64,000 bases of DNA, from contig JAKSIS010000002.1 of NCBI GenBank assembly GCA_024398665.1, forward strand, positions 4,958-68,957, given 5' to 3'. Each line of letters opens with the position of its first letter. Position 1 is the first letter of the stretch. Below the pieces are notes generated by a model. The model saw only the letters and a program-made list of their open reading frames with translations. It ran no database searches and was not told the origin of the DNA. This document shows, piece after piece, positions 9,316 through 36,710 of the stretch. The translations under genes were made by a program, and so were the position numbers. This stretch comes from Bacteroidaceae bacterium. Lineage in GTDB: Bacteria > Bacteroidota > Bacteroidia > Bacteroidales > Bacteroidaceae.

Positions 9316-11145
9316 ATGAAAATAGAGACACTAGTTGCCGAAATGACAGTCCAGGCTGTCAAGGCGTTGTACGGTCAGGACATTGAAGCCTCATCCGTAC
9401 AGGTACAGAAAACCAAGAAGGAGTTTGAAGGACACCTGACCATTGTTGTGTTCCCATATCTTAAGATGTCCCGCAAGGGTCCGGAGCAGACCGCCGGAGA
9501 AATAGGGACCTGGCTGCGTGAGAACGTGGAGGCTGTCAGTTCATACAATGTGATCAAAGGATTCCTGAATCTTGTCATTTCAACGGCAGAATGGGTGGAG
9601 ATACTGAACGGTATCAATTCCGATGAATCGTTCGGCTGCCGCAAGGCTGCGGACAACTCCCCTCTGGTCATGATAGAATATTCGTCACCCAACACCAACA
9701 AACCCCTGCATCTGGGACATGTGCGCAACAACCTGCTGGGCGGAGCACTGGCCAACATCATGGCTGCAAACGGTTTCCGTGTGGTCAAGACCAACATTGT
9801 CAATGACCGCGGAATACATATCTGCAAATCCATGCTGGCATGGCTCAAATGGGGTAACGGCGCCACTCCTGAATCTACAGGCAAGAAAGGTGACCACCTG
9901 ATTGGTGACTATTATGTGGAATTTGACAGGCATTTCCGTGCAGAAGTGAAAAGCCTTCTGCCCGCAGACTATGAAAACCTCGATGAAAAGGCAAAGGAAG
10001 AGGCCAAGGCTAAGGCCGAGAAACAGTCGCCGCTCATGCAGGAGGCCCACGCCATGCTGGTGAAGTGGGAAGCAGGCGATCCTGAGGTACGCGCTCTGTG
10101 GGAAAAGATGAACGGCTGGGTATATGCCGGATTCGATGAGACATACCGCCGTCTGGGCGTAAGCTTCGACAAGATATATTATGAGTCACAGACATACCTT
10201 GAGGGCAAGGGCAAGGTTCTGGAGGGCCTTGAAAAAGGTCTGTTCTTCCGCAAGGAGGACGGTTCAGTCTGGGCTGACCTTACTGAAAACGGTCTGGACC
10301 AGAAACTGCTTCTGCGCAGTGACGGAACATCGGTCTACATGACCCAGGACATAGGCACTGCAAAACTGCGTTTTCAGGATTTCCCCATTGACCGCATGAT
10401 CTACGTGGTCGGCAACGAACAGAACTACCATTTCCAGGTTCTTTCCATACTGCTTGACCGCCTGGGATTCAAGTGGGGCAAGGACCTGGTCCACTTCTCA
10501 TACGGCATGGTCGAACTGCCTGAAGGCAAGATGAAGAGCCGCGAAGGTACGGTGGTCGATGCTGATGACCTTATGGATGAAATGATTGAAACCGCCCGCC
10601 AGACCAGCGCAGAACTGGGCAAGTTGGACGGCATGTCGGAAGATGAAGTCAATGAGATAATGCGCATTGTCGGCATGGGTGCCCTGAAGTACTTCATACT
10701 CAAGGTCGACGCCCGCAAGAACATGACTTTCAATCCCAAGGAATCAATTGATTTCAACGGCAACACAGGCCCGTTCATCCAGTACACTTATGCCCGCATC
10801 CGTTCAATCATGCGCAAGGCAGCCGATGAAGGAATCGTTCTTGACAAGGCCATTTATTCCGATGGAAACGAGGTAATTTCAGAAAAGGAGATAAGTATTA
10901 TCCGCATGCTGAGCGGATTCCCCGATGTGGTGTGTCAGGCAGCTGATGACTACAACCCGTCCGTCATTGCAAACTACTGCTATGACCTGGCAAAGGAATT
11001 CAACCAGTTCTATCATGACTTCAGCATCATGCACGAACCCAGCCGCCAGCTCAAGCTGTTCCGTCTGACCCTGGCCGGCAACGTTGGCAAGATTATCCGC
11101 ACCGGCATGGGCCTGCTGGGCATTGAAGTCCCTGAAAGGATGTAA
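9316..11145 (+). CDS. argS: Arginine--tRNA ligase
   Basis: Class I HIGH motif PLHLGHVRN, a KMSKS-like KMKSREG, and an anticodon-binding C-terminus ending ...GIEVPERM. Start set to ATG 9316 (MKIETLV...). Confidence 0.93.
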   Translation: MKIETLVAEMTVQAVKALYGQDIEASSVQVQKTKKEFEGHLTIVVFPYLKMSRKGPEQTAGEIGTWLRENVEAVSSYNVIKGFLNLVISTAEWVEILNGINSDESFGCRKAADNSPLVMIEYSSPNTNKPLHLGHVRNNLLGGALANIMAANGFRVVKTNIVNDRGIHICKSMLAWLKWGNGATPESTGKKGDHLIGDYYVEFDRHFRAEVKSLLPADYENLDEKAKEEAKAKAEKQSPLMQEAHAMLVKWEAGDPEVRALWEKMNGWVYAGFDETYRRLGVSFDKIYYESQTYLEGKGKVLEGLEKGLFFRKEDGSVWADLTENGLDQKLLLRSDGTSVYMTQDIGTAKLRFQDFPIDRMIYVVGNEQNYHFQVLSILLDRLGFKWGKDLVHFSYGMVELPEGKMKSREGTVVDADDLMDEMIETARQTSAELGKLDGMSEDEVNEIMRIVGMGALKYFILKVDARKNMTFNPKESIDFNGNTGPFIQYTYARIRSIMRKAADEGIVLDKAIYSDGNEVISEKEISIIRMLSGFPDVVCQAADDYNPSVIANYCYDLAKEFNQFYHDFSIMHEPSRQLKLFRLTLAGNVGKIIRTGMGLLGIEVPERM

Positions 11146-11151
11146 ACCGCC

Positions 11152-11793
11152 ATGGCGTCAGGCAGCAGATACTATGTCGTTTGGATAGGACTGGAACCGG
11201 GCATATACGATTCCTGGGAAAAGTGCAGACAGCAGGTAGAAGGCTGGAAAGGCGCCGTTTACAAAGGGTTTGCCACAATTCAGGAGGCACGTGAGGCTTT
11301 CATGTCACCGCCTGAACTCTTCATTGAGAAGAAGGCTGCCGGCAGCGGCGGCAGGAAAAAAAAGAAAGAACGTGCTCCGCTGCCTCCTGAGGTATGTCTG
11401 CAGGCACTTGCTGTCGACGCCGCATGCAGCGGCAATCCCGGTCAGATGGAGTACCGCGCCGTTTATCTGGGTGACATGGAGGAAAAGTTCCATTTCGGCC
11501 CTATACTCGGAACGAACAACATAGGAGAATTCCTTGCCATAGTACACGCGCTTGCGCTTTACGGCAGCCGCGGTCTGGACTGGCCGGTGTACAGCGACAG
11601 CCGCAATGCCATAGCATGGGTCCGCCGCAAGCAATGCGGCACGAAACTGGAGCGCAATGAAGCCACGCGCGCCGTGTTTGAACGCATTGACAGCGCCGAA
11701 CGCTGGCTCAGGGAGAACAGCTACAGCAATCCCATCATAAAATGGGAAACTGACAAATGGGGTGAAATTCCCGCAGACTTTGGAAGGAAATGA
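11152..11793 (+). CDS. Ribonuclease H1-type protein with N-terminal hybrid-binding (viroplasmin-like) domain
   Basis: N-terminus reads YYVVWIGLEPGIYDSWEKCRQQVEGWKGAVYKGFATIQEAREAF, followed by an RNase H fold (AVDAACSGNPG, EFLAIVHAL). Confidence 0.8.
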   Translation: MASGSRYYVVWIGLEPGIYDSWEKCRQQVEGWKGAVYKGFATIQEAREAFMSPPELFIEKKAAGSGGRKKKKERAPLPPEVCLQALAVDAACSGNPGQMEYRAVYLGDMEEKFHFGPILGTNNIGEFLAIVHALALYGSRGLDWPVYSDSRNAIAWVRRKQCGTKLERNEATRAVFERIDSAERWLRENSYSNPIIKWETDKWGEIPADFGRK

Positions 11794-13637
11794 ACAGGAG
11801 TACAGTTTTCACTGACGGGCGTCTTTCAATGCTGATAAGGCATTATCTGCTTCTTTTAGCCCTTTTCATCGTGGAAAAGCCGCTGTTCATGCTTTATGCC
11901 GGAGGCGGTGGATACAGTCCTGTCGAATGGCTGGAAGTGATGCGCCACGGACTGTCCGTTGACCTTTCCGTTGCCGGATACCTTACATGTCTGCCCCTGC
12001 TCATGGTCATTACAGGCATATGGTGGGAGTCATTCCCCATCAAGACGGCAATGAAATGGTACGATGGAATCGTATCAGTCATACTGTCCCTTATTTTCTG
12101 CGGTGACTGTGCACTGTATCCATTCTGGGGTACAAAGCTTGACGCATCGGTCTTCTTCTATCTCAAGACGCCGGGCGAAGCCATGGCCAGCATATCCGTA
12201 CCTTTTCTCATAGCAGGCTTAGCAGCCGCAGCAGCCATAGCCTGGCTTGTATACAAGACTCTGACAATGGCGCTCAAGCCCTACGGGCACAAATACCCGC
12301 AGGTGCTCAGACGCATTCCCGCCACCGTTGTCATGGTTCTGCTGTACGCCCCTATTGTCCTTGCAATACGCGGAGGGCTGGGCGAATCGACAATGAATGT
12401 GGGACATGCCTATTTCAGTACGGACCAGTTCCTGAACCATTCGGCAGTCAACCCCGCATTCAGCCTGCTCAGTTCCATGGGAAAGTCCGATGACTACGCC
12501 TCATATTACGATTATTTCGATGAGGAGCAGCGTGCCGGACTGTTCGAGGGCCTCTTCCTTCAGGAGGACGGCAACACCGAAATGCTGCTCAAGACCCGCC
12601 GTCCCAACGTTCTGCTCATGATAATGGAGGGATATGGAGGCGATCTTGTGGAGCGTCTGGGAGGAACACCAGGCGTTTCGCCATGTCTGGACCGCATTTC
12701 ACGTGAAGGAGTCTTCTTTGAAAACTGTTACGCCGGCAGCTACAGGACTGACCGCGGTGTGGTATGCATACTGAACGGCCATCCGGGTCTGCCTGTCTCA
12801 TCCTACATGAAAATGCCGGTGAAAAGCGCAACTCTGCCTTCTTTCCCGTCCCGTCTGGCCCAGTTGGGATATGACACTGAATTCATGTACGGCGGTGACA
12901 TAAACTTCACGAACATGCAGAGCTACCTGTGGAGCAACGGGTACCGTAACATAATATCGGACACTGACTTCACCCCAGCCCAGCGCCATACCAACGCATG
13001 GGGTGTGAATGACGACATAACATTTTCAGCGCTTTATGACAGGATATGCGGAAAGGACCCTTCACAGCCTTGGATGACCACATTCCTGAGCCTGAGCAGC
13101 CATGAACCGTTCGATGTGCCGTTCAACAGGTTTGAAGACAAGATACCCAATTCTTTCGCATACACTGACAGCTGCCTGGGTTCACTCGTGGACAAGCTGA
13201 AATCCACTCCCGTATGGGACAGCCTGCTTGTCGTGATTATCCCCGACCACGGGTTCCCATACCCGCAGGAAGGCTTTTTCCAGGCACCGCACGTACGCCA
13301 CATCCCCGCCATATGGACCGGCGGCGCCGTACGTGAACCGCGCGTTGTGGAATGTCTTACCAACCAGTACGACATGGCCGCCACGCTGCTTGCCCAGATG
13401 GGACTGGACCACAGCGAATTCGGGTTCAGCCGCAATGTGCTGTCAAGTGCATATGAACGCCAGTTCGTGTTCTACACATACAACAACGGATTCTGTTTCA
13501 TCGATTCCACCGGTGTTTCGGTGTACGATGACGATGCCGGAAAATGTGTGATTGACGAAGGTCCTGACGGCAGGCGCAGGACTGATCTGGGCAAGGCCAT
13601 CCTACAGACCCTGTATGACGATCTGGGCAGCCGCTGA
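11790..13637 (+). CDS. LTA synthase / sulfatase-superfamily membrane phosphotransferase (paralogue 1)
   Basis: Five N-terminal TM helices plus an alkaline-phosphatase-fold domain (LLMIMEGYGG, SHEPF, PDHG). ATGA overlap with the upstream gene. Confidence 0.8.
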   Translation: MNRSTVFTDGRLSMLIRHYLLLLALFIVEKPLFMLYAGGGGYSPVEWLEVMRHGLSVDLSVAGYLTCLPLLMVITGIWWESFPIKTAMKWYDGIVSVILSLIFCGDCALYPFWGTKLDASVFFYLKTPGEAMASISVPFLIAGLAAAAAIAWLVYKTLTMALKPYGHKYPQVLRRIPATVVMVLLYAPIVLAIRGGLGESTMNVGHAYFSTDQFLNHSAVNPAFSLLSSMGKSDDYASYYDYFDEEQRAGLFEGLFLQEDGNTEMLLKTRRPNVLLMIMEGYGGDLVERLGGTPGVSPCLDRISREGVFFENCYAGSYRTDRGVVCILNGHPGLPVSSYMKMPVKSATLPSFPSRLAQLGYDTEFMYGGDINFTNMQSYLWSNGYRNIISDTDFTPAQRHTNAWGVNDDITFSALYDRICGKDPSQPWMTTFLSLSSHEPFDVPFNRFEDKIPNSFAYTDSCLGSLVDKLKSTPVWDSLLVVIIPDHGFPYPQEGFFQAPHVRHIPAIWTGGAVREPRVVECLTNQYDMAATLLAQMGLDHSEFGFSRNVLSSAYERQFVFYTYNNGFCFIDSTGVSVYDDDAGKCVIDEGPDGRRRTDLGKAILQTLYDDLGSR

Positions 13638-27165: not shown

Positions 27166-27199
27166 TCCCCGGGCTGTCAAGCCTGGGGATTTTTATTTT
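27166..27199 (+). terminator. Rho-independent terminator of the greA-HIT unit
   Basis: Stem UCCCCGGGC / GCCUGGGGA (one G-U pair on plus-strand RNA) followed by UUUUUAUUUU. The tail overlaps the stop of the convergent gene. Confidence 0.65.
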
Positions 27200-28680
27200 C
27201 TGCGGAAATACTTGCCGACCACCGGAAGGCTTGCAGCCGGCAGGTCCTTCTTTAGTATGAAGGCTATGTATATGCAGATCAGGACAGTGTTGATGAGCAG
27301 GCTCAGCCACGTTGCAAACGGTTTGCAACCAAGATAAATGACATATAGAACGGCAGCCAGCAGCACATACCGGCCTATCTCCTTCAAAGGATAGGCAATG
27401 TAGCCTTTTTTCTGACCAATGAAATAGGACATGAGCATACATGTGCCGTAACCTGCAAATCCGCCCCATGCACAGGCCATGTAACCAACTTTCGGAACGA
27501 ATATCACGTTGATGGCAATCATTACGGCAGCACCGGTTGCGCTCATGACGGCTCCCCACCAGGTCTGGTCGCTCAGTTTGTACCAGAACGAAAGGTTGAA
27601 ATAAATGCCCATGAAAAGTTCGGCCATCATGACTATGGGGACAACATCCAGTCCGACCCAGTATTCATGGTTGGTTACCAGATATCGGAATAGAGGCAGA
27701 TAGAACATGACTCCGAGAAATGCCAGTATGCCGAAAATTATGAAATACTTCATGCCCTGTGCCAGCGTCTCAGTAGAATTCCTGTCTTTTGACCCGCCGA
27801 ATACGAACGGTTCATAAGCATAGCGGAAAGCCTGTGTCAGCAGGCTCAGTATCATTGCGATCTTGCAGCATGCCCCGTAAATGCCAAGCTGGACACGTCC
27901 TTCTTCACCTTCAACAAGCTTGGGGTAAGCCATCTTGTCGAACACCTGGTTGAGTATTCCTACCAGTCCGAGAAGCAGGATTGGCCATGCGTATGCAAGC
28001 ATCCGTTTTGCAAGTTTTCCATCGAACCCGAATGTAATTCCCTTCAGTTCTTTAAGGAACCCGAATGTGACTAGGAAAGTACAGATCAGATTGACAAAGA
28101 ATATCAGTCCTACACCATAATCATACCTTATATATATGTCCTGGAGAGCGGGCATGATTCCGAACAGTTTGGGCAGGAGCCAGAATACGGCAACATTCAG
28201 GATTACATTGGGAATGATGAACGCCATTTTCAGCATCATGAACTTAATGGGACGGTGCTGCTGACGCAAGCGGCTGAACATGATGGCCTGGAACGCGTCA
28301 AGCACCCCGATTATGGCAAAGCATGCCACGTATTCCGGATGGTTCGTATACTCAAGATAACCGGCTATGGGGCCAAGGAAACAGAAAACCAGTGCAAGGA
28401 AAACAAGTCCGATGCCGCCCACCAGGCGCAGTGCGGTGCTGTATACCATATTCTGGTCCTCACCATCCTTGTTCGCGAAACGGAAGAAGGTGGTCTCCAT
28501 ACCGAACGTAAGCAGGACGAACAGCAAAGCAGCCCATGCGTACATGTTCGACACTATGCCGTATCCGCCGCTCCGGGGGTCAATATAGTGGGTGTGCAGC
28601 GGTACCAGCAGGTAGTTCAGGAACCTGCCTACAATGCTGCTGAGCCCGTAAATTGCCGTGTCCTTGGCCAGCGTGGCCAT
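27193..28680 (-). CDS. MOP-superfamily oligosaccharide/polysaccharide flippase (Wzx-like)
   Basis: About 14 TM helices. N-terminus LAKDTAIYGLSSIVGRFLNYLLVP is typical of polysaccharide biosynthesis flippases. Start set to ATG 28678-28680. Confidence 0.75.
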   Translation of the reverse strand: MATLAKDTAIYGLSSIVGRFLNYLLVPLHTHYIDPRSGGYGIVSNMYAWAALLFVLLTFGMETTFFRFANKDGEDQNMVYSTALRLVGGIGLVFLALVFCFLGPIAGYLEYTNHPEYVACFAIIGVLDAFQAIMFSRLRQQHRPIKFMMLKMAFIIPNVILNVAVFWLLPKLFGIMPALQDIYIRYDYGVGLIFFVNLICTFLVTFGFLKELKGITFGFDGKLAKRMLAYAWPILLLGLVGILNQVFDKMAYPKLVEGEEGRVQLGIYGACCKIAMILSLLTQAFRYAYEPFVFGGSKDRNSTETLAQGMKYFIIFGILAFLGVMFYLPLFRYLVTNHEYWVGLDVVPIVMMAELFMGIYFNLSFWYKLSDQTWWGAVMSATGAAVMIAINVIFVPKVGYMACAWGGFAGYGTCMLMSYFIGQKKGYIAYPLKEIGRYVLLAAVLYVIYLGCKPFATWLSLLINTVLICIYIAFILKKDLPAASLPVVGKYFRRK

Positions 28681-28723: not shown

Positions 28724-30052
28724 TCATTGCCGGTGTGCTTCGTCAAACATCCTGAGCCTTTCTTCCAGCAGCGGGAACTGGTCATCACGTATGTTCGATG
28801 AACAGCCGCGTATTCCCTGACGTGTACTGCCTGTTGATTTCAGTGTTATGCCGCTGATTCCGTAGTACAGCAGTTCGTGAAGCAGCTGGCCACCTTCCAT
28901 GGGTGTGCCGTCAGGCAGATTGTAGCTGAAGGTAAAGAAGAAACCGTCGCTGACATCCTCATCAAGGTCCTTGTCATAAGTGATGGAGAACCCGTTACGC
29001 AGCAGGGCGGCCTTGATTTTTTCAGTGCGGCGCGCATATTCGCGTATGTCCTCACGGAACCTGTAGTCACCGTCACATGCAGCCTTGAGCATTGCAGCCA
29101 TGGCAAACTGTACAGAATGGGTTACGCCCGATGACATGGCATACAGCATGTCGTAGGCATAAACGGCACCGAAACGCGAAATGCTGTAGCGTTTCTGCAG
29201 GGTCTCATAGCTGCGAACGAACAGTTTGTCCGATATGCATGCAACGGCAATGCGCTCACCGGCATAGCTGAATATCTTGCTGCCGGAAAGCATCATGATG
29301 TAGTTGTCCGTATAATGTGACACACTTACCTGATATGGTGCCTTGAACGGTACGCCAAGTCCTTCACGACGGAAATCCATGGTCATGTACGCAAGGTCCT
29401 CAAGTATTATTGTGTCATATTTTGTGGCCAGTTCACCGATGGTTTTTATCTCACCTTCTGTCAGACACATCCAGCTGGGGTTATTCGGATTCGAATAGAC
29501 TATGCAGCATATGTTGCCGTTCTTCAGGTAGCTTTCCAACTTTGGAGCCAGCTTTTCGGCTCGGAAGTCAGCCACATCGAATGATGCTGTCTTTACGCCC
29601 ATGACATTTGCCTGCATTTTCTGTACAGGGAAACCGGGATCGATGTAAAGGATTGTATCTTTCTTGGGGTCCAGTTGCGAGCACAGCAGGAATGCTGCAA
29701 ATGTGCCCTGCATAGCTCCGCAGGTGGGTGTGCAGTGGGCGGCCTCAATGTCCGTGTTGATGAATGCCTTGACAAAGCGGGCTGCCTGTTCCTTTAGTTC
29801 GGGTATGCCTTCAATGTTAGGGTATTTTGATGCGACTCCGCGGTCCAGAGCCTCTTTCTGGGCCTTGATACCGACAGCCGACGGCGGTATGCCGGGCACA
29901 CCCATTTCAAAATGGATGAACTCCTGACCGGTAACCTTTTCAGCATTCATTTCGCAGGCAAGCACCTGGCGTATCGATGCCCTGTTCAGGTCAGTTATCT
30001 CGATCTGCCTGAAGTAATCGTCAATGACGTTTGCAGGAATTAGCGTTTTCAT
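28724..30052 (-). CDS. Class I/II PLP-dependent aminotransferase
   Basis: 442 aa. The PLP-lysine motif is LSGSKIFSYAGERI. It lies 6 nt downstream of iorB on the same strand. Confidence 0.85.
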   Translation of the reverse strand: MKTLIPANVIDDYFRQIEITDLNRASIRQVLACEMNAEKVTGQEFIHFEMGVPGIPPSAVGIKAQKEALDRGVASKYPNIEGIPELKEQAARFVKAFINTDIEAAHCTPTCGAMQGTFAAFLLCSQLDPKKDTILYIDPGFPVQKMQANVMGVKTASFDVADFRAEKLAPKLESYLKNGNICCIVYSNPNNPSWMCLTEGEIKTIGELATKYDTIILEDLAYMTMDFRREGLGVPFKAPYQVSVSHYTDNYIMMLSGSKIFSYAGERIAVACISDKLFVRSYETLQKRYSISRFGAVYAYDMLYAMSSGVTHSVQFAMAAMLKAACDGDYRFREDIREYARRTEKIKAALLRNGFSITYDKDLDEDVSDGFFFTFSYNLPDGTPMEGGQLLHELLYYGISGITLKSTGSTRQGIRGCSSNIRDDQFPLLEERLRMFDEAHRQ

Positions 30053-30058
30053 CGGGAT

Positions 30059-30631
30059 TTATTCGCAGCTGCGGCCTATTTCCAGGGCCTTGATGTTCAT
30101 GTCAACTATTGCATCGCCCTTGGCGCCGAAAATGGTACGGACGCTTTCGCAGAGCTTTTCAAAACTTATGCTCTTCAAGGCCTTGGAAGCGGCGCCCAGC
30201 AGTATCATGTTAACGGCCTTGGGCATGCGGTTCTCCTTGCCCAGACTGTCCGTATCAATCAGAATGACGTTATCCAACTGCTTCAGCTCACCTATGACCG
30301 CATCAATGTCCGGATAGTTGCCTATATTGACGAACGGATTCGATGAAGTGATTATCCAGCCGTCAGTTGACAGGTACTGCTTGTAGCGCAGTGCCTCCAT
30401 CGGCTCCATTGCAATTATGATGTCAGCCTGCCCAAGAGCTATCAGGTCGCTTGCTATGGGTTTGTCCGATATGCGCAGATTGGACTGTACGTCACCACCG
30501 CGCTGGCTCATTCCGTGGACTTCGGCCTGCTTTATGTAAAGGTCCTCAGTAAGAGCGGCCTGACCTATGACGGTTGCTATTGAGAGGATACCCTGTCCTC
30601 CAACTCCTGCAAGAATAATGTCTGTCTTCAT
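30059..30631 (-). CDS. iorB: Indolepyruvate:ferredoxin oxidoreductase subunit beta
   Basis: MKTDIILAGVGGQGILS is typical of the OFOR gamma-like subunit. ATGA overlap with the iorA stop. Confidence 0.88.
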   Translation of the reverse strand: MKTDIILAGVGGQGILSIATVIGQAALTEDLYIKQAEVHGMSQRGGDVQSNLRISDKPIASDLIALGQADIIIAMEPMEALRYKQYLSTDGWIITSSNPFVNIGNYPDIDAVIGELKQLDNVILIDTDSLGKENRMPKAVNMILLGAASKALKSISFEKLCESVRTIFGAKGDAIVDMNIKALEIGRSCE

Positions 30632-32235
30632 TTCTGTGCGGCTTTTGCTTTTGCCTTGCGGGCAAGTGTCTGTATGCATTCGCGGCGCGGTATGATTACT
30701 GACAGTCCGCGGTATTCAATCTCTTCACGCAGCGTGCGTGTAATCTCCTCCATGTTCTGCGGCAGGGGAACGACAACCTTCAGGTGCTCAGGGTCAACTC
30801 CGATTCCACGGCATATGGCTTCGAACTTGTTCGTTCCAGCCGAATCCTGACCGCCGGTCATGCCTGTAGTCAGATTGTCGCTTATGATGACTGTAATGGG
30901 AGCGTTGGCATTCACGGCGTCAAGCAGTCCTGTCATGCCGGAATGGGTAAATGTGCTGTCACCTATTATTGCAACTGCCGGGAACACGCCTGCGTCACTG
31001 GCGCCCTTTGCCATGGTTATGCTGGCACCCATGTCAACGGTGCTGTCAAGGGCCTGGAAAGGAGGCAGGGCTCCAAGTGTGTAGCAGCCTATGTCACCGA
31101 ACACTTTTGCGTCCTTGTAGTCTTTCAGCACCAGGTTTATGGCCTCATATACGCTGCGGTGGCCGCAACCCTGACACAGTGCCGGAGGACGTGCCACAAT
31201 GTTTGCAGCAACTTCAGGATGCGGCAGCACAGGTATTCCCAGAGCGGCCTTCACAATGTCAGGATTCAGTTCACCCTGACGCGGAAGCGCACCTGACAGG
31301 CGTCCTGTAATTTCGCAGTCCGATGGAAGTATGCCCTTTATCTGCTCTTCAACAAACGGCTGTCCGTCTTCAATCACAAGTATCCTGTCACACTGTTCGG
31401 CCATTGTGCGTACGGTCTCAGCCGGTATTGGGTACTGTGAAAGTTTCATAACCGGGAAAGGAATGCCATCAGGATAGCATTCTGACAGGTAGTTGTATGC
31501 GTTGCCGCACGCAATGGCACCCATCTTGAATCTTTTGGCATCGGCCTTGAAACTGTTGAACGGCGATTCAACGGCCAGGCGCATTATTTCAGGCTGGCGC
31601 TCCAGCATTGAAGCGTAACGGCGTTTTGCTATTGCAGGGAGCAGCACCCAGTCACGGCTGCCGCTTACCGGATTCAAAGCGTTCTGATCCCGTTTTTCAC
31701 CAAGCGTCACCACGGCACGTGAATGGGCCAGACGGGTTACGGTACGCATCAGAACAGGAAGTTTCAAAGTTTCAGACATGTCATACGCATAAGCCATCAT
31801 ATTGTAGGCTTCCTGCTGTGAAGAAGGTTCCAGTATGGGGAGCAGTGCGAACTTGCCGTAGAAACGCGTGTCCTGTTCATCCTGTGATGAATGCATTGAA
31901 GGGTCATCAGCCACAAGAACGACAATACCACCGTTCACGCCGGTGATTGACGAGTTCACGAACGGGTCTGCGGCCACGTTCATACCTACATGCTTCATGC
32001 AGACCAGGGCGCGTTTTCCGGCAAATGACATGCCGAGCGCGGCTTCCATTGCGGTCTTTTCATTCACGCACCAGCGGTTGTGGATCTTTTCGTCAGGGTT
32101 CCTGCTGCAGTAGCCCTGAATATATTCGGTTATTTCAGTCGAGGGTGTTCCGGGATAGGCGTAGACTCCGCTCAGTCCGGCATCAATTGCACCCTGCGCA
32201 ATGGCTTCATCGCCAAGTAACAGTTTCTTTGCCAT
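30628..32235 (-). CDS. iorA: Indolepyruvate:ferredoxin oxidoreductase subunit alpha
   Basis: 535 aa with pyrimidine-binding and TPP-binding domains (GDSTFTHSG) and a Cys motif LCQGCGH. Confidence 0.9.
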   Translation of the reverse strand: MAKKLLLGDEAIAQGAIDAGLSGVYAYPGTPSTEITEYIQGYCSRNPDEKIHNRWCVNEKTAMEAALGMSFAGKRALVCMKHVGMNVAADPFVNSSITGVNGGIVVLVADDPSMHSSQDEQDTRFYGKFALLPILEPSSQQEAYNMMAYAYDMSETLKLPVLMRTVTRLAHSRAVVTLGEKRDQNALNPVSGSRDWVLLPAIAKRRYASMLERQPEIMRLAVESPFNSFKADAKRFKMGAIACGNAYNYLSECYPDGIPFPVMKLSQYPIPAETVRTMAEQCDRILVIEDGQPFVEEQIKGILPSDCEITGRLSGALPRQGELNPDIVKAALGIPVLPHPEVAANIVARPPALCQGCGHRSVYEAINLVLKDYKDAKVFGDIGCYTLGALPPFQALDSTVDMGASITMAKGASDAGVFPAVAIIGDSTFTHSGMTGLLDAVNANAPITVIISDNLTTGMTGGQDSAGTNKFEAICRGIGVDPEHLKVVVPLPQNMEEITRTLREEIEYRGLSVIIPRRECIQTLARKAKAKAAQK

Positions 32236-32260
32236 TTTGAAAGTTTGATGTCTTGGAATG

Positions 32261-32268
32261 CAAATATC
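32261..32268 (-). promoter_or_regulatory. Possible internal promoter for iorAB (GATATTTG, 5 of the 6 fixed positions of TAnnTTTG)
   Basis: Plus-strand CAAATATC lies 26 nt upstream of the iorA ATG, just downstream of the internal terminator. Confidence 0.3.
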
Positions 32269-32288
32269 CTAATTTTTCTTCTAAAGTC

Positions 32289-32320
32289 AAAAAGGGAAAC
32301 CGGCTATCAGGCCGGTCCCC
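32289..32320 (-). terminator. Intrinsic terminator between the SSS permease and iorA
   Basis: Minus-strand RNA has arms GGGGACCGGC and GCCGGUUUCCC (10 bp, one bulge) followed by UUUUU. It lies 30 nt after the permease stop. Confidence 0.55.
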
Positions 32321-32351
32321 TTGAAAAAGACTATTGTGTTTTAACGGTAAG

Positions 32352-33935
32352 TCAGTCTTTCCTTTCCTCTTCCATAAGAGAGGTCATTGCCCTTACGGTG
32401 ACTGTCTTCTCATAGCAGCCGAACATCTTTTCGACATTCTCCTTGTCATGGACACGGGTGAATGCACTTACTATCGGTACTATCACAAGGCCCATAAGCA
32501 TTGCCAGCACACCGGCATTGATGGGTGATGTGAAGTACGGACTGATGAATGTCTTATGTGTGAAGGTGCAGTACATGCAGCCGCACATTATGAGAATGCC
32601 ACAGATGAAACTTGCCCAAACTGAAGCCCTGGTGGTCTTCTTCCAGTACAGACCCCACAGGAAAGGTGCCAGGAATGCACCTGCCAGTGCGCCCCAGGAA
32701 ATACCCATGAGCTGAGCAATGAAGGTCACGGAACTCTTGGCCTGGATAATGGCCAGGACAGACGAAACTGCAATGAAGAACAGGACCAGCAGTCTGATTG
32801 ACAACAGCTGTGATTTTTCCGACATTTCCTTACCGGACTTGCTTACGGCAGGTTTGATTATGTCAAGTGTCAGTGTCGAGCCCGATGTCAGAACCAGCGA
32901 TGAAAGCGTTGACATTGATGCGGAAAGCACCAGTATTATCACAACGCCTATCATCAGGTCAGGCAGGGTCTGGAGCATTGACGGAACAATGCTGTCGAAT
33001 ATTGGCTTGCCGTTTGCTCCGTATTCTATCACGTCACCGTACAGGCGTCCGAATCCGCCAAGGAAGTAGCAGCCGCCGGCTACAATGATTGCAAAGAATG
33101 TTGAGATGAATGTGCCTTTCTTGATGGCGTTTTCATCGCGGATAGCGTAGAATTTGCCAACCATCTGAGGAAGTCCCCATGTGCCCAGTGAAGTCAGAAG
33201 GACAACTCCAAGCAGATATATGGGTTCAGGTCCGAAGAACGATGTGAAAGCACCGTTAAGGGCCGGAGCCGTCTCGGCAGGAATGGCTGAAAGTTTCTCA
33301 ATTGCTGCGGTGAAACCGCCGTTTCCGTTCAGTACGGCTATGATGACAGCAACAATGCCAACCAGCATGATCATGCCCTGTATGAAGTCATTGATTGCAG
33401 TGGCCATGTATCCGCCCACCAGCACATAAATGCCGGTCAGAACTGCCATTCCCAACACGCACCATGTGTAGTCAATGTTGAATGACATTCCGAACAGGCG
33501 TGACAGACCGTTGTAAAGTGATGCGGTGTAGGGAACAAGGAACACGAACACAATCACCGATGCGGCAACCTTCAGTGCGCCGGAATTGAACCTGGCCCCG
33601 AAAAAGTCAGGCATGGTGGCGCTTTTCAGGTACTGTGTCATAAGGCGTGTGCGGCGGCCCAGCAGCCTCCAGGCCAGCAGTGATCCTATCACGGCATTAC
33701 CTATTCCTATCCATGTCGATGCAATACCGTATTTCCAGCCGAACTGTCCTGCGTAACCTACAAAGATGACGGCCGAAAAATAACTTGTACCGAATGCGAA
33801 AGCTGTCAGCCAGGAACCTACGTTACGGTCTCCCAAAACAAAACCCTGCACATTGCTTGTGCTTTTGTGGCAGTAAACTCCAACGCCTATCATAACGGCG
33901 AAGAACAGTACCAGAATTAAAATCTTCAAAAACAT
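32352..33935 (-). CDS. Sodium:solute symporter (SSS) family permease
   Basis: 527 aa with about 13-14 TM helices and an SSS-type N-terminus. It lies between the ACT gene and iorA. Confidence 0.85.
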   Translation of the reverse strand: MFLKILILVLFFAVMIGVGVYCHKSTSNVQGFVLGDRNVGSWLTAFAFGTSYFSAVIFVGYAGQFGWKYGIASTWIGIGNAVIGSLLAWRLLGRRTRLMTQYLKSATMPDFFGARFNSGALKVAASVIVFVFLVPYTASLYNGLSRLFGMSFNIDYTWCVLGMAVLTGIYVLVGGYMATAINDFIQGMIMLVGIVAVIIAVLNGNGGFTAAIEKLSAIPAETAPALNGAFTSFFGPEPIYLLGVVLLTSLGTWGLPQMVGKFYAIRDENAIKKGTFISTFFAIIVAGGCYFLGGFGRLYGDVIEYGANGKPIFDSIVPSMLQTLPDLMIGVVIILVLSASMSTLSSLVLTSGSTLTLDIIKPAVSKSGKEMSEKSQLLSIRLLVLFFIAVSSVLAIIQAKSSVTFIAQLMGISWGALAGAFLAPFLWGLYWKKTTRASVWASFICGILIMCGCMYCTFTHKTFISPYFTSPINAGVLAMLMGLVIVPIVSAFTRVHDKENVEKMFGCYEKTVTVRAMTSLMEEERKD

Positions 33936-33957
33936 GACTATTGGTATTTATAATTCG

Positions 33958-34386
33958 TTATTCCCAACCCTGAACAAGTGTCAGACCTGATTCTGCAGCC
34001 ACCTCTTCAGCCTTCTCGAGACTTGCCGGACGGATAATGAGCACCAGTTTGCCGTCCTTATGGAATGTATACAGATAGCTTATTGAAACACCGCCTGCAG
34101 TGAGAGCGTCAACGGCATCGGCAAAAGCGCCGGTGGTGGGATCGACCTGAATGGCCATCACCTCATTGAGGCTTACCAGATGGCCCTTTGCTGAAAGCAG
34201 GCCGGCAGCCTTTGTCTGGTCCGATGTGATGAGACGCAGAATGCCGAATTCAGTGGTGTCGGCGACTGAAGCCGCCTGAATCTCTATGTTATCGTTCTTG
34301 AGTGCTGTGAGAATGTCTCCCAGCTTTCCCTGCTGGTTCTCAAGGAATATTGAAATCTGCTTGATAGTCTTCATAATAGTATTCAT
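33958..34386 (-). CDS. ACT-domain (amino-acid-binding) small protein
   Basis: Contains IKQISIFLENQQGKLGDIL and a second ACT-like repeat. Start at ATG 34384-34386, with an alternative at 34374. It lies 1 nt after the paaK stop. Confidence 0.8.
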   Translation of the reverse strand: MNTIMKTIKQISIFLENQQGKLGDILTALKNDNIEIQAASVADTTEFGILRLITSDQTKAAGLLSAKGHLVSLNEVMAIQVDPTTGAFADAVDALTAGGVSISYLYTFHKDGKLVLIIRPASLEKAEEVAAESGLTLVQGWE

Positions 34387-34387
34387 A

Positions 34388-35689
34388 TTAATGGTTCTGA
34401 CGCAAATCAACAACTCTCTTGGCCTTGCCGTCCGACTGCGGGATGACACCCTTGCCTACAAGCTTCACCTTTGGCGTGAGCAGGATTTCATCCTTCAGGC
34501 GGCGTGTGATTTCCCTGGTAAGATTCTGCAGCATTGCAAAATCATCAGTAGCCTGCTTGAGTTCGGCTTCAATGGTCATTTCATCATTGTCACCTATAGT
34601 TTCAATGGTGATCAGATAGTCACTGGCAAGTTCGGGGAACTGCATGAGAATCTTTTCGATCTGGATGGGATACGTGTTCACACCCTTGATGATCATCATG
34701 TCATCGCTGCGGCCCTGGAAGCGGTCCAGACGCCTGTGTGTACGTCCGCAGGGACAGTCACCGGGTATGATGCGGGTAAGGTCACGTGTACGGTAGCGGA
34801 ACAGCGGCATTGCCTCACGGTTCAGTGTGGTCAGCACCAGTTCGCCAAGTTCTCCTTCCGGAACGGGTTCCAGTGTCTCAGGATCGAGAATCTCAACAAT
34901 GTAGTTGTCTTCCCAGATATGCATGCCGTTCTGCTCCTGGCATTCTATTGCCACACCGGGGCCGCACATCTCGCTCATTCCGAAATTGTTGTATGCCTTG
35001 GCACCCCAGATTTCCTCAATGCGGCGACGCTGTGCTTCAGAATGCGGTTCGGCACCTATTATAAGAGTCTTCACCGTAGTGTCACGCGGGTTGATGCCTT
35101 CTTCCTCAAATGCAGCGGCCAGACGGGTGGCATATGAAGGGATGCAGTGCAGTGCGGTGGTTCCGAAATCGGTGATGAACTTCACGTGGCGTTTTGAGTT
35201 TCCTGCTCCGGCCGGAACTGTAAGCGCACCCAGACGTTCTGCGGCATACTGGATGCCAAGACCGCCGGTGAACATGCCGTAACCCGACGTATTCTGTATG
35301 ATGTCCGTGGAACGGAGTCCGATGCAGTACATTGAACGTGCCATGGCATCGGCCCATTCGTCCAGATCCTTCTTCGTATGCAGTATGACGGTGGGATTGC
35401 CGGTGGTACCGCTTGATGAATGAAGCCTGACAACCTTGTCAAGACCTACCGATGCTATGCCGAACGGATAGGTGGCACGAAGGTCATTTTTTGTCGTAAA
35501 GGGGAACCTCTTTATGTCCTCCACTGACTTGATGCTCTCAGGAGTAATGCCCAGTTCCTTGAACTTGGGAGCATAGAACTTGCTGCCCATTGCAATTTCA
35601 ACCGTCTTTCTGAGACGTTCGGCCTGCAGCTGCTCAAGCTGCTTGCGTGGCATTGTTTCAATCTCCTCATTCCAGAATTTGCTTTCCAT
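34388..35689 (-). CDS. paaK: Phenylacetate-CoA ligase family (arylacetate--CoA ligase)
   Basis: 433 aa. Has the PaaK-type N-terminus FWNEEIETMPRKQLEQLQAERL and the AMP-binding motif SSSGTTGNPTV. Confidence 0.88.
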   Translation of the reverse strand: MESKFWNEEIETMPRKQLEQLQAERLRKTVEIAMGSKFYAPKFKELGITPESIKSVEDIKRFPFTTKNDLRATYPFGIASVGLDKVVRLHSSSGTTGNPTVILHTKKDLDEWADAMARSMYCIGLRSTDIIQNTSGYGMFTGGLGIQYAAERLGALTVPAGAGNSKRHVKFITDFGTTALHCIPSYATRLAAAFEEEGINPRDTTVKTLIIGAEPHSEAQRRRIEEIWGAKAYNNFGMSEMCGPGVAIECQEQNGMHIWEDNYIVEILDPETLEPVPEGELGELVLTTLNREAMPLFRYRTRDLTRIIPGDCPCGRTHRRLDRFQGRSDDMMIIKGVNTYPIQIEKILMQFPELASDYLITIETIGDNDEMTIEAELKQATDDFAMLQNLTREITRRLKDEILLTPKVKLVGKGVIPQSDGKAKRVVDLRQNH

Positions 35690-35713: not shown

Positions 35714-35746
35714 AAAAAAAAGACCCGCCCTTGATGGGGCAGGTCC
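35714..35746 (-). terminator. Attenuator terminator in the paaK leader
   Basis: Minus-strand RNA stem GACCUGCCC (35745-35737) / GGGCGGGUC (35730-35722) has 9 bp. Its one U-G pair would be C-A on the plus strand. Loop is 6 nt, followed by U8 (35721-35714), 24 nt before the paaK ATG. Confidence 0.8.
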
Positions 35747-35791
35747 GTATGCTGTTTCAAATGCGATTCAAAATACACACCTCCTTGCCCC
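35736..35791 (-). promoter_or_regulatory. Candidate antiterminator (region 2 GGGGCAAGG pairs with region 3 CCUGCCCC)
   Basis: Positions 35791-35783 can pair with 35743-35736 (8 bp, one bulged A). This sequesters the 5' arm of the terminator. Region 2 can alternatively pair back into the leader ORF. Confidence 0.55.
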
Positions 35792-35795
35792 ACGG

Positions 35796-35843
35796 TTACG
35801 TGCGGTAATAATAATAGTAATAGGAGGCGCTTACAAATTTCAT
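35796..35843 (-). CDS. Leader peptide MKFVSASYYYYYYRT (six consecutive Tyr codons)
   Basis: Read directly as ATG AAA TTT GTA AGC GCC TCC TAT TAC TAT TAT TAT TAC CGC ACG TAA. It starts about 17 nt after the predicted TSS in an A-rich context, and its stop codon sits in the loop of a small hairpin. Confidence 0.75.
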   Translation of the reverse strand: MKFVSASYYYYYYRT

Positions 35844-35866: not shown

Positions 35867-35897
35867 CAAAGGTATACACGAATTTCCTGCCGGCAAA
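35867..35897 (-). promoter_or_regulatory. Promoter of the Tyr-leader/paaK unit (-33 TTTG, 19-nt spacer, -7 TACCTTTG)
   Basis: Plus-strand CAAAGGTA (35867-35874) and CAAA (35894-35897) match the Bacteroides TTTG-N19-21-TAnnTTTG consensus on the minus strand. Confidence 0.6.
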
Positions 35898-35966: not shown

Positions 35967-36710
35967 TCAAAGATTGAGAATACTGTCTGTCAAATGACTT
36001 ATACTTGCGTCATCCCCGTCAAACAATCCTACGTAATAGTACATACCTGTACCAGGTGCCACGGTCTGCCCCAGATAGGCATGGCCGGCTTCACCGTCAG
36101 CTGCATACCGGTCCGCCTCAGGCATAACGATGACAACATTTAGGTCATTAGCGTAGGTCACCTGGAGCACTCTGCCCTGTGAGCTGACAGTTGCAGTGTC
36201 CCCGCATACTGCTCCTGCTACAACATTAAGTCCTTCAAACACCCCGTCCCAATGGTCAATGACCTGGATGAAGGGACTTCCGGCAGTCATGGTTATCTGC
36301 TTGTCCAGGGAAACCTCTGTTCCAAGTATGTCAGTTTTCGGGTAGAAGACCGCCATGACTGCGCGGTCCGGCGAATGCATGAGCAGCTGATACTTCCTGT
36401 CAATCTTTTCAGGGAAGTAGAATCCGCTGGTACCCAACGGCGCCGATCCGCCTACTCCAAGACACATTCCGTCAAAACCTATGGAACTGCCTTCCTCTTC
36501 CTCCCGACCGGCCAGCCAGACATTGAAGCCCATTGATGTCAGGGTCTCCTGCTGCTGCAGGGACATGCTGTAACCGGCCAGGCTGTTCTGAAACGAGAAA
36601 CTGTTCTCCATTTCATCAACCGTTATCTCCCAATCGGCCTTGTTTGTCGCTCTGTTCCTGCAGGAGACAGCAATAACGGCCATTGCAGCCAGCAATAGTG
36701 TTCTTTTCAT
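35967..36710 (-). CDS. Hypothetical lipoprotein
   Basis: Lipobox MKRTLLLAAMAVIAVSC. I recognise no other motif. Confidence 0.6.
   Translation of the reverse strand: MKRTLLLAAMAVIAVSCRNRATNKADWEITVDEMENSFSFQNSLAGYSMSLQQQETLTSMGFNVWLAGREEEEGSSIGFDGMCLGVGGSAPLGTSGFYFPEKIDRKYQLLMHSPDRAVMAVFYPKTDILGTEVSLDKQITMTAGSPFIQVIDHWDGVFEGLNVVAGAVCGDTATVSSQGRVLQVTYANDLNVVIVMPEADRYAADGEAGHAYLGQTVAPGTGMYYYVGLFDGDDASISHLTDSILNL

Follow-up and report, generated by a model that had tools for sequence, protein, structure and literature searches.

The window analysed here is a 64,000-nucleotide (nt) stretch of contig JAKSIS010000002.1 from a Bacteroidaceae bacterium (assembly GCA_024398665.1; positions 4,958 to 68,957 of the forward strand), in which six genes of a putative arylacetate salvage pathway lie behind a short leader rich in tyrosine codons. 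The six open reading frames (ORFs), all on the minus strand, encode in order a PaaK-type arylacetate-CoA ligase, a protein consisting of a pair of ACT domains, a permease of the sodium:solute symporter (SSS) family, the alpha and beta subunits of an indolepyruvate/arylpyruvate:ferredoxin oxidoreductase (IOR; iorA and iorB) and an aminotransferase (Table 1). The gaps between them are 13, 22 and 116 nt, then a 2-nt start/stop overlap between iorA and iorB (ATGA), then 6 nt. A preliminary description of this DNA had placed six such genes on one strand with gaps of 1-116 nt; the strand, the positions and the family identities all hold, and the spacing was essentially right.

Some 150 nt upstream of paaK lies the leader ORF, which reads ATG AAA TTT GTA AGC GCC TCC, then six consecutive tyrosine codons (TAT/TAC), then CGC ACG TAA. 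It has a Bacteroides-type promoter of its own (TTTG, 19 nt, TAccTTTG) and is followed by a G-rich strand, hereafter the GGGG box, and by an intrinsic terminator. The box has two possible partners, as it forms the 5' strand of an antiterminator and doubles as the 3' half of an anti-antiterminator hairpin with CCGCACG (35797-35803). The predicted fold of the leader has a free energy of -42.9 kcal/mol and a z-score of -3.29. On this strand of the window no other ORF pairs such a run of a single residue with a downstream T-run, and when other same-residue leader ORFs with T-runs were sought in the window and in 56 related Bacteroidales loci, the non-tyrosine matches, mostly Arg, Lys or Ala, looked like chance or coding-region hits. 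No Rfam family matches the leader at gathering thresholds; a permissive search gave only Leu_leader at 19 bits (threshold 50) and Thr_leader at 15 bits (threshold 55). Judged by its sequence, the architecture is that of the textbook trp, phe and his attenuators, with tyrosine as the amino acid sensed, and the leader is almost certainly a genuine attenuator.

Table 1. Features of the locus in the order of their transcription, with positions in the window.
Feature	Position	Strand	Remarks
-33 promoter element TTTG of the leader transcript	35894..35897	-	read from the sequence; 19 nt before TAccTTTG
-7 box TAccTTTG	35867..35874	-	equivalent TAnnTTTG box conserved upstream of all aligned leaders
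Leader ORF, MKFVSASYYYYYYRT	35796..35843	-	six Tyr codons at 35805-35822; stop codon TAA at 35796-35798
Antiterminator 5' strand GUGGGGCAAGG (GGGG box)	35783..35793	-	starts 3 nt past the stop codon
Intrinsic terminator	35714..35746	-	hairpin 35746-35721 (GGACCUGCCCC AUCAA GGGCGGGUC), then U8
paaK, AMP-forming arylacetate-CoA ligase type	34388..35689	-	433 aa; AMP-binding (PF00501) and AMP-binding_C_2 (PF14535)
Stand-alone ACT domain pair protein	33958..34374	-	138 aa; true start at 34374; ACT_8, PF19571, 108 bits
Sodium:solute symporter family permease	32352..33935	-	527 aa; PF00474; PutP/PanF-like
Terminator-like hairpin (10 bp) and T5 in the SSS-iorA gap	32295..32320	-	near-identical in L002
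Near-consensus -7 box GATATTTG	32261..32268	-	TTTG 19 nt upstream
iorA, indolepyruvate/arylpyruvate:ferredoxin oxidoreductase alpha	30628..32235	-	535 aa; POR_N and TPP_enzyme_C domains
iorB, IOR beta	30059..30631	-	190 aa; NF005324, 289 bits, above the cutoff of 222; start overlaps iorA stop
Class I/II pyridoxal phosphate-dependent aminotransferase	28724..30052	-	442 aa; PF00155

The leader is not peculiar to this window. Scanning species-representative genomes with the PaaK protein retrieved 80 loci, among them those of uncultured rumen and hindgut Bacteroidales (L003-L058) and, at ~55% identity, those of Syntrophales and other Deltaproteobacteria (L059-L081). The best match, at 97%, comes from a metagenome-assembled genome of Candidatus Colenecus caballi from horse faeces (Bacteroidaceae in the NCBI taxonomy), with identical gene order. 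Homologous leaders with a tyrosine run precede paaK in 22 of the 56 Bacteroidales loci and span 82-97% PaaK identity; one further copy is decayed (L038) and one is cut by a contig end (L040). The N-terminal residues of the leader peptides vary freely (MNVRFASA-, MNFSHT-, MISQQTYS-, MKFIKNLYA-) while the tyrosine run and the following CGC-ACN-stop are kept, which points to selection on the codons and the RNA rather than on the peptide. Phe, Cys or His occasionally replaces a residue within the run, Trp never. A scan of metagenomes with CCGCACNTAANCGTGGGG for other codon runs returned at least 120 chance matches, none leader-like among the matches listed; the pattern is too short for a collection of that kind. 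In the decayed copy, MKGNGYTAYSYCSLT, located ~160 to 40 nt ahead of paaK (locus position 10001), three scattered tyrosine codons remain and a terminator-like hairpin is intact; this may be an attenuator partway through loss or retuning.

An alignment of 19 distinct leaders supports the two competing structures unequally. The terminator helix shows compensatory changes at 6 of its 9 pairs, with 90.6% of cells paired, values reached in none of 500 shuffles. The conserved GUGGGGC box and GCCCCAC, the terminator's 5' arm, are complementary, with 86% of cells paired against 44-52% in slid controls, and double changes occur in just two pairs of this antiterminator, where two sequences switch U-A to C-G. 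Switching was followed by co-transcriptional folding in silico, using transcripts that end before the 3' arm of the terminator and masking the footprint of a ribosome. With the ribosome placed on the tyrosine codons, the GGGG box paired with the terminator 5' arm in all 19 leaders; with the ribosome on the stop codon, the box was covered in all 19 and paired with the arm in none. When no ribosome was placed, the box was sequestered in 10 of the 19 by the CCGC(AC) hairpin together with pairing of AGGAGG to the GCCUCCU codons, and in the other nine it paired with the terminator arm. When the whole leader carrying a stalled ribosome was folded to its equilibrium minimum free energy structure, most sequences kept the terminator; we rejected this as a test because attenuation is co-transcriptional. 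The tyrosine-codon leader to which the preliminary description had drawn attention was thus borne out as a conserved attenuator, and in these models its geometry predicts read-through when charged Tyr-tRNA is scarce.

What the leader controls is a narrower question than the shared strand suggests. The preliminary description had treated the six genes as one unit, and this has to be revised. When the proteins of the window were mapped by tblastn onto all loci, paaK-ACT-SSS were found together in ~50, in invariant order with gaps of ~15-70 nt, and iorA-iorB-aminotransferase together in ~40; gene order of this regularity, on the evidence of the comparison, is far from chance. The two blocks are adjacent in ~40 of the 56 Bacteroidales loci and rearrange independently. 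In most loci iorA-iorB-aminotransferase lies directly downstream on the same strand, in L003-6, L034 and L055 it is convergent, in L050 and L053 divergent, and in L035/36 genes for an M28 protein and SufE separate the two; in L038-L049 it was not found within 10 kb of paaK-ACT-SSS. The leader, by comparison, is invariably attached to paaK-ACT-SSS. Since the 1.2 kb upstream of iorA holds no convincing aromatic-rich leader ORF in any of the loci, the attenuator belongs to that block.

The spacer between SSS and iorA is itself variable. In L007, L011 and L018 it measures 13-21 nt, which implies co-transcription; in other loci it is 48-67 nt long and holds a good Bacteroides -7 box (TAcTTTTG or TAatTTTG), the consensus being TAnnTTTG; and in roughly a dozen it extends to ~840-1140 nt with an inserted gene for a DUF975 membrane protein. 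The insert, of ~260 aa, was seen in L014, L016, L017, L019, L021, L024, L025, L027-L029 and L032, and in L017 (13373-14164) the flanking gaps of 18 and 23 nt make a string of seven genes. The window shares its 116-nt spacer with L002, and the terminator-like hairpin in it is absent from loci with gaps of 13-67 nt. Downstream of the hairpin, GATATTTG is a probable internal promoter for iorA-iorB-aminotransferase, which usually has its own promoter box across the loci. Because the 116-nt gap contains both hairpin and -7 box, a common strand does not mean a common transcript, and in the window the two blocks, linked in function by their neighbourhood, are probably transcribed separately or only partly coupled.

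The history of the paaK block can be followed on a neighbour-joining tree of PaaK. SSS and leader are both missing from the basal loci (L057, L054, L053 and L050) and both present in the clade beginning at L047; in this leader-bearing clade SSS always follows paaK-ACT. In many of the deltaproteobacterial loci a paaK-ACT pair is also present (~55% and 25-30% identity, with ACT directly downstream of paaK), while iorAB, SSS and the aminotransferase gene were undetectable near it; the partnership of ligase and ACT protein therefore appears old and independent of adjacency to IOR. From the distribution of leaders it looks as though the attenuator was lost repeatedly in a derived rumen clade, and also in L003, and kept in L020, L026, L030 and L031. 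In the ~200 nt upstream of paaK, L007-L019, L021-L025, L027-L029, L032, L033, L051, L052 and L058 have no leader; in leaderless loci sufE or a DUF4861-like gene is followed immediately by a plain TAaaTTTG promoter, 30-40 nt from paaK. The SSS gene of L058 is matched by two abutting tblastn pieces (11767-12375 and 12375-13337), which suggests a frameshift, due either to a pseudogene or to an assembly error.

The proteins were assigned to families by Pfam and NCBIfam profile searches, and their nearest structures were taken from PDB matches. PaaK has the domain pair of AMP-forming adenylation enzymes (PF00501 and PF14535). It scores 459.5 bits against TIGR02155, below the equivalog cutoff of 646.3, and 668 bits against the Bacteroides thetaiotaomicron PaaK structure 4R1L, to which its identity looks high by eye in the alignment. 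Because of this second score, and despite the missed cutoff, its sequence places it in the Bacteroidales group of PaaK-like arylacetate ligases rather than with the proteobacterial equivalog. The one solved relative of the ACT protein is PDB 2F06 (81 bits), annotated 'conserved hypothetical protein'; the protein may be an amino acid sensor with a role in feedback. IorA aligns to positions 2-540 of the 595 in TIGR03336 with 520 bits (cutoff 650.9). The IorA proteins of Bacteroides, of 530 aa, likewise end short of this model. The C-terminal segment of the archaeal-type model is, on these alignments, absent from the lineage.

For the aminotransferase the nearest structure is PDB 3G0T, an uncharacterised 'putative aminotransferase' (454 bits), and no NCBIfam equivalog reaches its cutoff; the sole pointer to its specificity is that its gene follows iorB in every locus that has both on the contig. 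For the permease, the preliminary description had pointed to a family that includes the acetate permease ActP and a Pseudomonas phenylacetate permease. The profile scores do not bear out this analogy, with 195 bits for PutP, 157 for PanF and 36-39 for ActP-type models, all below cutoff, and PF00474 as the only model satisfied. A homologue search with the protein gave only relatives of at least 80% identity and no leverage on its substrate. By the same assignments the cluster contains no Pta, acyl kinase or ADP-forming ligase, and the set of arylacetate-activating ligase, IOR and aminotransferase, as in Methanococcus maripaludis, is complete.

Taken together, these observations lead us to favour, with somewhat better than even confidence, a two-module pathway for the salvage of aromatic amino acids, in which an attenuated entry module of paaK, ACT and SSS would feed a core of iorA, iorB and aminotransferase. 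The entry module, with its promoter and tyrosine leader, would be under ribosome-mediated transcription attenuation. When Tyr-tRNA is plentiful, a ribosome reaching the leader stop codon would cover the GGGG box, the terminator would form and transcription would stop before paaK; when it is scarce, a ribosome stalled on the six tyrosine codons would leave the box to pair with the terminator 5' arm, and polymerase would read through into paaK-ACT-SSS. The permease would then import an arylacetate, most likely 4-hydroxyphenylacetate, which PaaK would convert to its CoA thioester at the expense of ATP (to AMP), a step on which the ACT protein may feed back. In the second module, expressed from its own promoter and in some species perhaps also reached by read-through, IorAB would carboxylate the arylacetyl-CoA reductively to arylpyruvate with reduced ferredoxin, and the aminotransferase would complete the amino acid. 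Genes, attenuator and modular organisation can be read from sequence and comparison; we infer which way flux runs, which substrates PaaK and the permease take and what the ACT protein does.

One argument for direction is regulatory. Uncharged cognate tRNA raises the expression of genes behind a leader attenuator, so the entry module is predicted to be induced by tyrosine starvation, and such induction fits a supply pathway, not the fermentation of tyrosine. We regard an anabolic direction as likely and specificity for 4-hydroxyphenylacetate and tyrosine as plausible. The biosynthetic reading in the preliminary description accordingly stands in part: the tyrosine leader, the AMP-forming ligase and the lack of Pta, kinase and ADP-forming ligase speak for it, while the leader is linked only to paaK-ACT-SSS. 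A bolder version, which is possible but clearly doubtful, would have the attenuator gate a non-shikimate, cross-feeding route to tyrosine, with hosts dependent on the 4-hydroxyphenylacetate of their neighbours, the PutP-like permease acting as an arylacetate:Na+ symporter and the ACT protein as an end-product sensor throttling the ligase; SSS and leader would have joined paaK-ACT in one clade, followed by repeated deregulation in rumen lineages.

Several points weigh against salvage under tyrosine control. The antiterminator covaries weakly and is supported mostly by its conservation. More than half of the related loci have a plain promoter in place of the leader, hence tyrosine control is dispensable. 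The hairpin that separates SSS from iorA in the window means that the leader may not control IOR and aminotransferase at all. The permease, being PutP/PanF-like rather than ActP-like, could carry an amino acid. No feature of the sequence favours 4-hydroxyphenylacetate over phenylacetate or indoleacetate. Lastly, B. thetaiotaomicron requires its IOR to make phenylacetate from Phe, an oxidative conversion (Zhu et al., 2023, cited in PMC13285125), and by analogy IorAB and the aminotransferase could run catabolically here. This last point fits a version of the salvage pathway in which iorAB-aminotransferase is a reversible, separately promoted core and paaK-ACT-SSS its anabolic entry.

In the usual annotation of such loci, the cluster would ferment the amino acid through arylpyruvate and arylacetyl-CoA to arylacetate and the permease would export the product. 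The reversibility of IOR, its contribution to phenylacetate formation in B. thetaiotaomicron as reported in the same source, and the separate promoter of iorA-iorB-aminotransferase would all suit such a cluster. Induction by tyrosine starvation, however, is the opposite of what a tyrosine-degrading pathway needs. Catabolic IOR and VOR clusters, moreover, carry Pta with an acyl kinase, or ADP-forming ligases, whereas the ligase here is of the AMP-forming type, which has been argued to favour thioester synthesis (PMC13285125), and we consider fermentation very improbable as the function of this locus. The PutP-like scores of the permease lend themselves to another proposal, that the attenuator serves mainly tyrosine uptake, with SSS as a Na+-coupled importer of tyrosine or aromatic amino acids and PaaK and ACT secondary; on the PaaK tree the leader is indeed confined to the clade that acquired SSS, the basal loci lacking both. 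Yet the leader precedes paaK and not SSS, the order paaK-ACT-SSS is invariant in ~50 genomes, an AMP-forming arylacetate ligase has no part in tyrosine import, and PanF is an example of carboxylate transport within this branch; uptake as the main function is, in our judgement, distinctly unlikely.

With pathway and direction unchanged, the locus could also serve a general salvage of arylacetates for Phe, Tyr and Trp together by a broad-specificity PaaK, IOR and aminotransferase not tied specially to 4-hydroxyphenylacetate, with the charging of Tyr-tRNA as a mere proxy signal. Characterised IORs accept phenyl-, hydroxyphenyl- and indolepyruvate, and each locus has a single paaK/ior set. The AMP-forming ligase linked to IOR in Bacteroides proved an arylacetate-CoA ligase in assays and is described only as such; the substrates tested were 4-hydroxyphenylacetate, phenylacetate and indoleacetate (PMC13285125, methods 4.14), and a Clostridioides difficile ligase is the only one said explicitly to act on all three (PMC13285125). 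Against this stands the leader, in which tyrosine is the only repeated residue and tryptophan never appears, where mixed codons would be expected of a general aromatic sensor. General salvage is rather unlikely on this evidence, and we retain the two-module pathway with a tyrosine-responsive entry as the preferred reading.

The proposed chemistry, from arylacetate to the aryl-CoA, by IOR carboxylation to arylpyruvate and by transamination to the amino acid, is that of M. maripaludis, in which aryl acids feed aromatic amino acid synthesis via IOR (MMP0713/0714; Porat et al., 2004, as cited in PMC4162585). The present locus differs in its bacterial host, in the clustering of its genes with a dedicated permease, an ACT protein and an aminotransferase gene, and in the tyrosine attenuator placed before the entry module; its pathway is predicted from sequence. 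Orthologous PaaK (668 bits to 4R1L of B. thetaiotaomicron), IorA and IorB are encoded by the iorA-iorB-paaK operon of Bacteroides (called 'PPFOR' by Zhu et al., 2023), which shows the same linkage of ligase to IOR. In the genus Bacteroides (L203-L206, 3795-7308) these genes follow yceG in the order iorA-iorB-paaK with gaps of 3-17 nt; those loci were checked for a leader, which is absent (the promoter is plain), and they also lack ACT, SSS and aminotransferase genes. Work on the Bacteroides operon has concerned the oxidative direction, towards phenylacetate. The hpdDEFG-hpdJ-hpdK cluster of Clostridium scatologenes and the IOR/VOR clusters of C. difficile (PMC13285125) likewise place an arylpyruvate:ferredoxin oxidoreductase at the arylacetyl-CoA node. 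These fermentation clusters gain ATP through a phosphate acyltransferase and acyl kinase or an ADP-forming ligase, in contrast to the ATP-consuming, AMP-forming ligase and predicted starvation-induced switch of the present locus.

As a regulatory device the leader resembles trpL, pheL and hisL of Escherichia coli, sharing with them a short ORF with a run of regulatory codons, a terminator hairpin with an antiterminator as its alternative, and a U-run shortly before the first structural gene. The predicted Bacteroid-trp leader is another leader-peptide attenuator of the classic type. The present element differs from the classic attenuators in its tyrosine codons and in the genes it would control, which are a salvage ligase, a sensor and a transporter rather than a de novo biosynthetic operon.

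Elsewhere in the window, the ~40 kb scanned by Pfam contained housekeeping genes only. On the same strand, 44 nt downstream of the aminotransferase gene, an ORF of ~495 aa (27193-28680, minus strand) had no Pfam or NCBIfam match at the thresholds used, and no terminator was detected between the two. Just upstream of the leader promoter lies a lipoprotein-like ORF of 247 aa (35967-36710, minus strand) that matches only the C-terminal part of the DUF4861/BT3233 family, at 23-31 bits; some relatives have this gene between sufE and paaK, and others lack it.

Rumen bacteria reportedly carboxylate phenylacetate and indoleacetate reductively to Phe and Trp, as described by Allison in 1965 and by Allison and Robinson in 1967; the habitat, that of rumen and hindgut Bacteroidales, and the conversion are the same as proposed here, and that work assigned neither genes nor regulation. 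The type of pathway is thus already known, from classic rumen physiology and from methanogens. The preliminary description had remarked that such loci are normally annotated as catabolic; this is indeed the usual annotation, but an anabolic role for the Bacteroides IOR/ligase pair, 'similar to methanogenic archaea', was proposed in 2026 (PMC13285125). New here are the attenuator with its tyrosine codons, the fact that it is attached to a module of ligase, ACT protein and permease, the presence of a dedicated aminotransferase and the modular course of evolution. Our literature searches found neither a tyrosine-codon leader peptide attenuator nor an attenuator of paaK described in the searchable literature.

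The IOR and PaaK loci of gut Bacteroidales are at present mostly discussed for the phenylacetate they supply, from which phenylacetylglutamine, a metabolite associated with cardiovascular risk, is made, and the direction of flux through them is disputed. A conserved attenuator predicted to switch ligase and permease on at tyrosine starvation provides independent, sequence-level evidence for the anabolic direction, and offers a simple experimental handle on the question. The locus ties a sixty-year-old observation in rumen physiology, the conversion of arylacetates to amino acids, to candidate genes and a regulatory signal, and it puts forward candidates for the transporter of the pathway and for an ACT sensor. 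Our analysis also suggests that cross-feeding of arylacetates shapes the amino acid economy of the rumen and hindgut.

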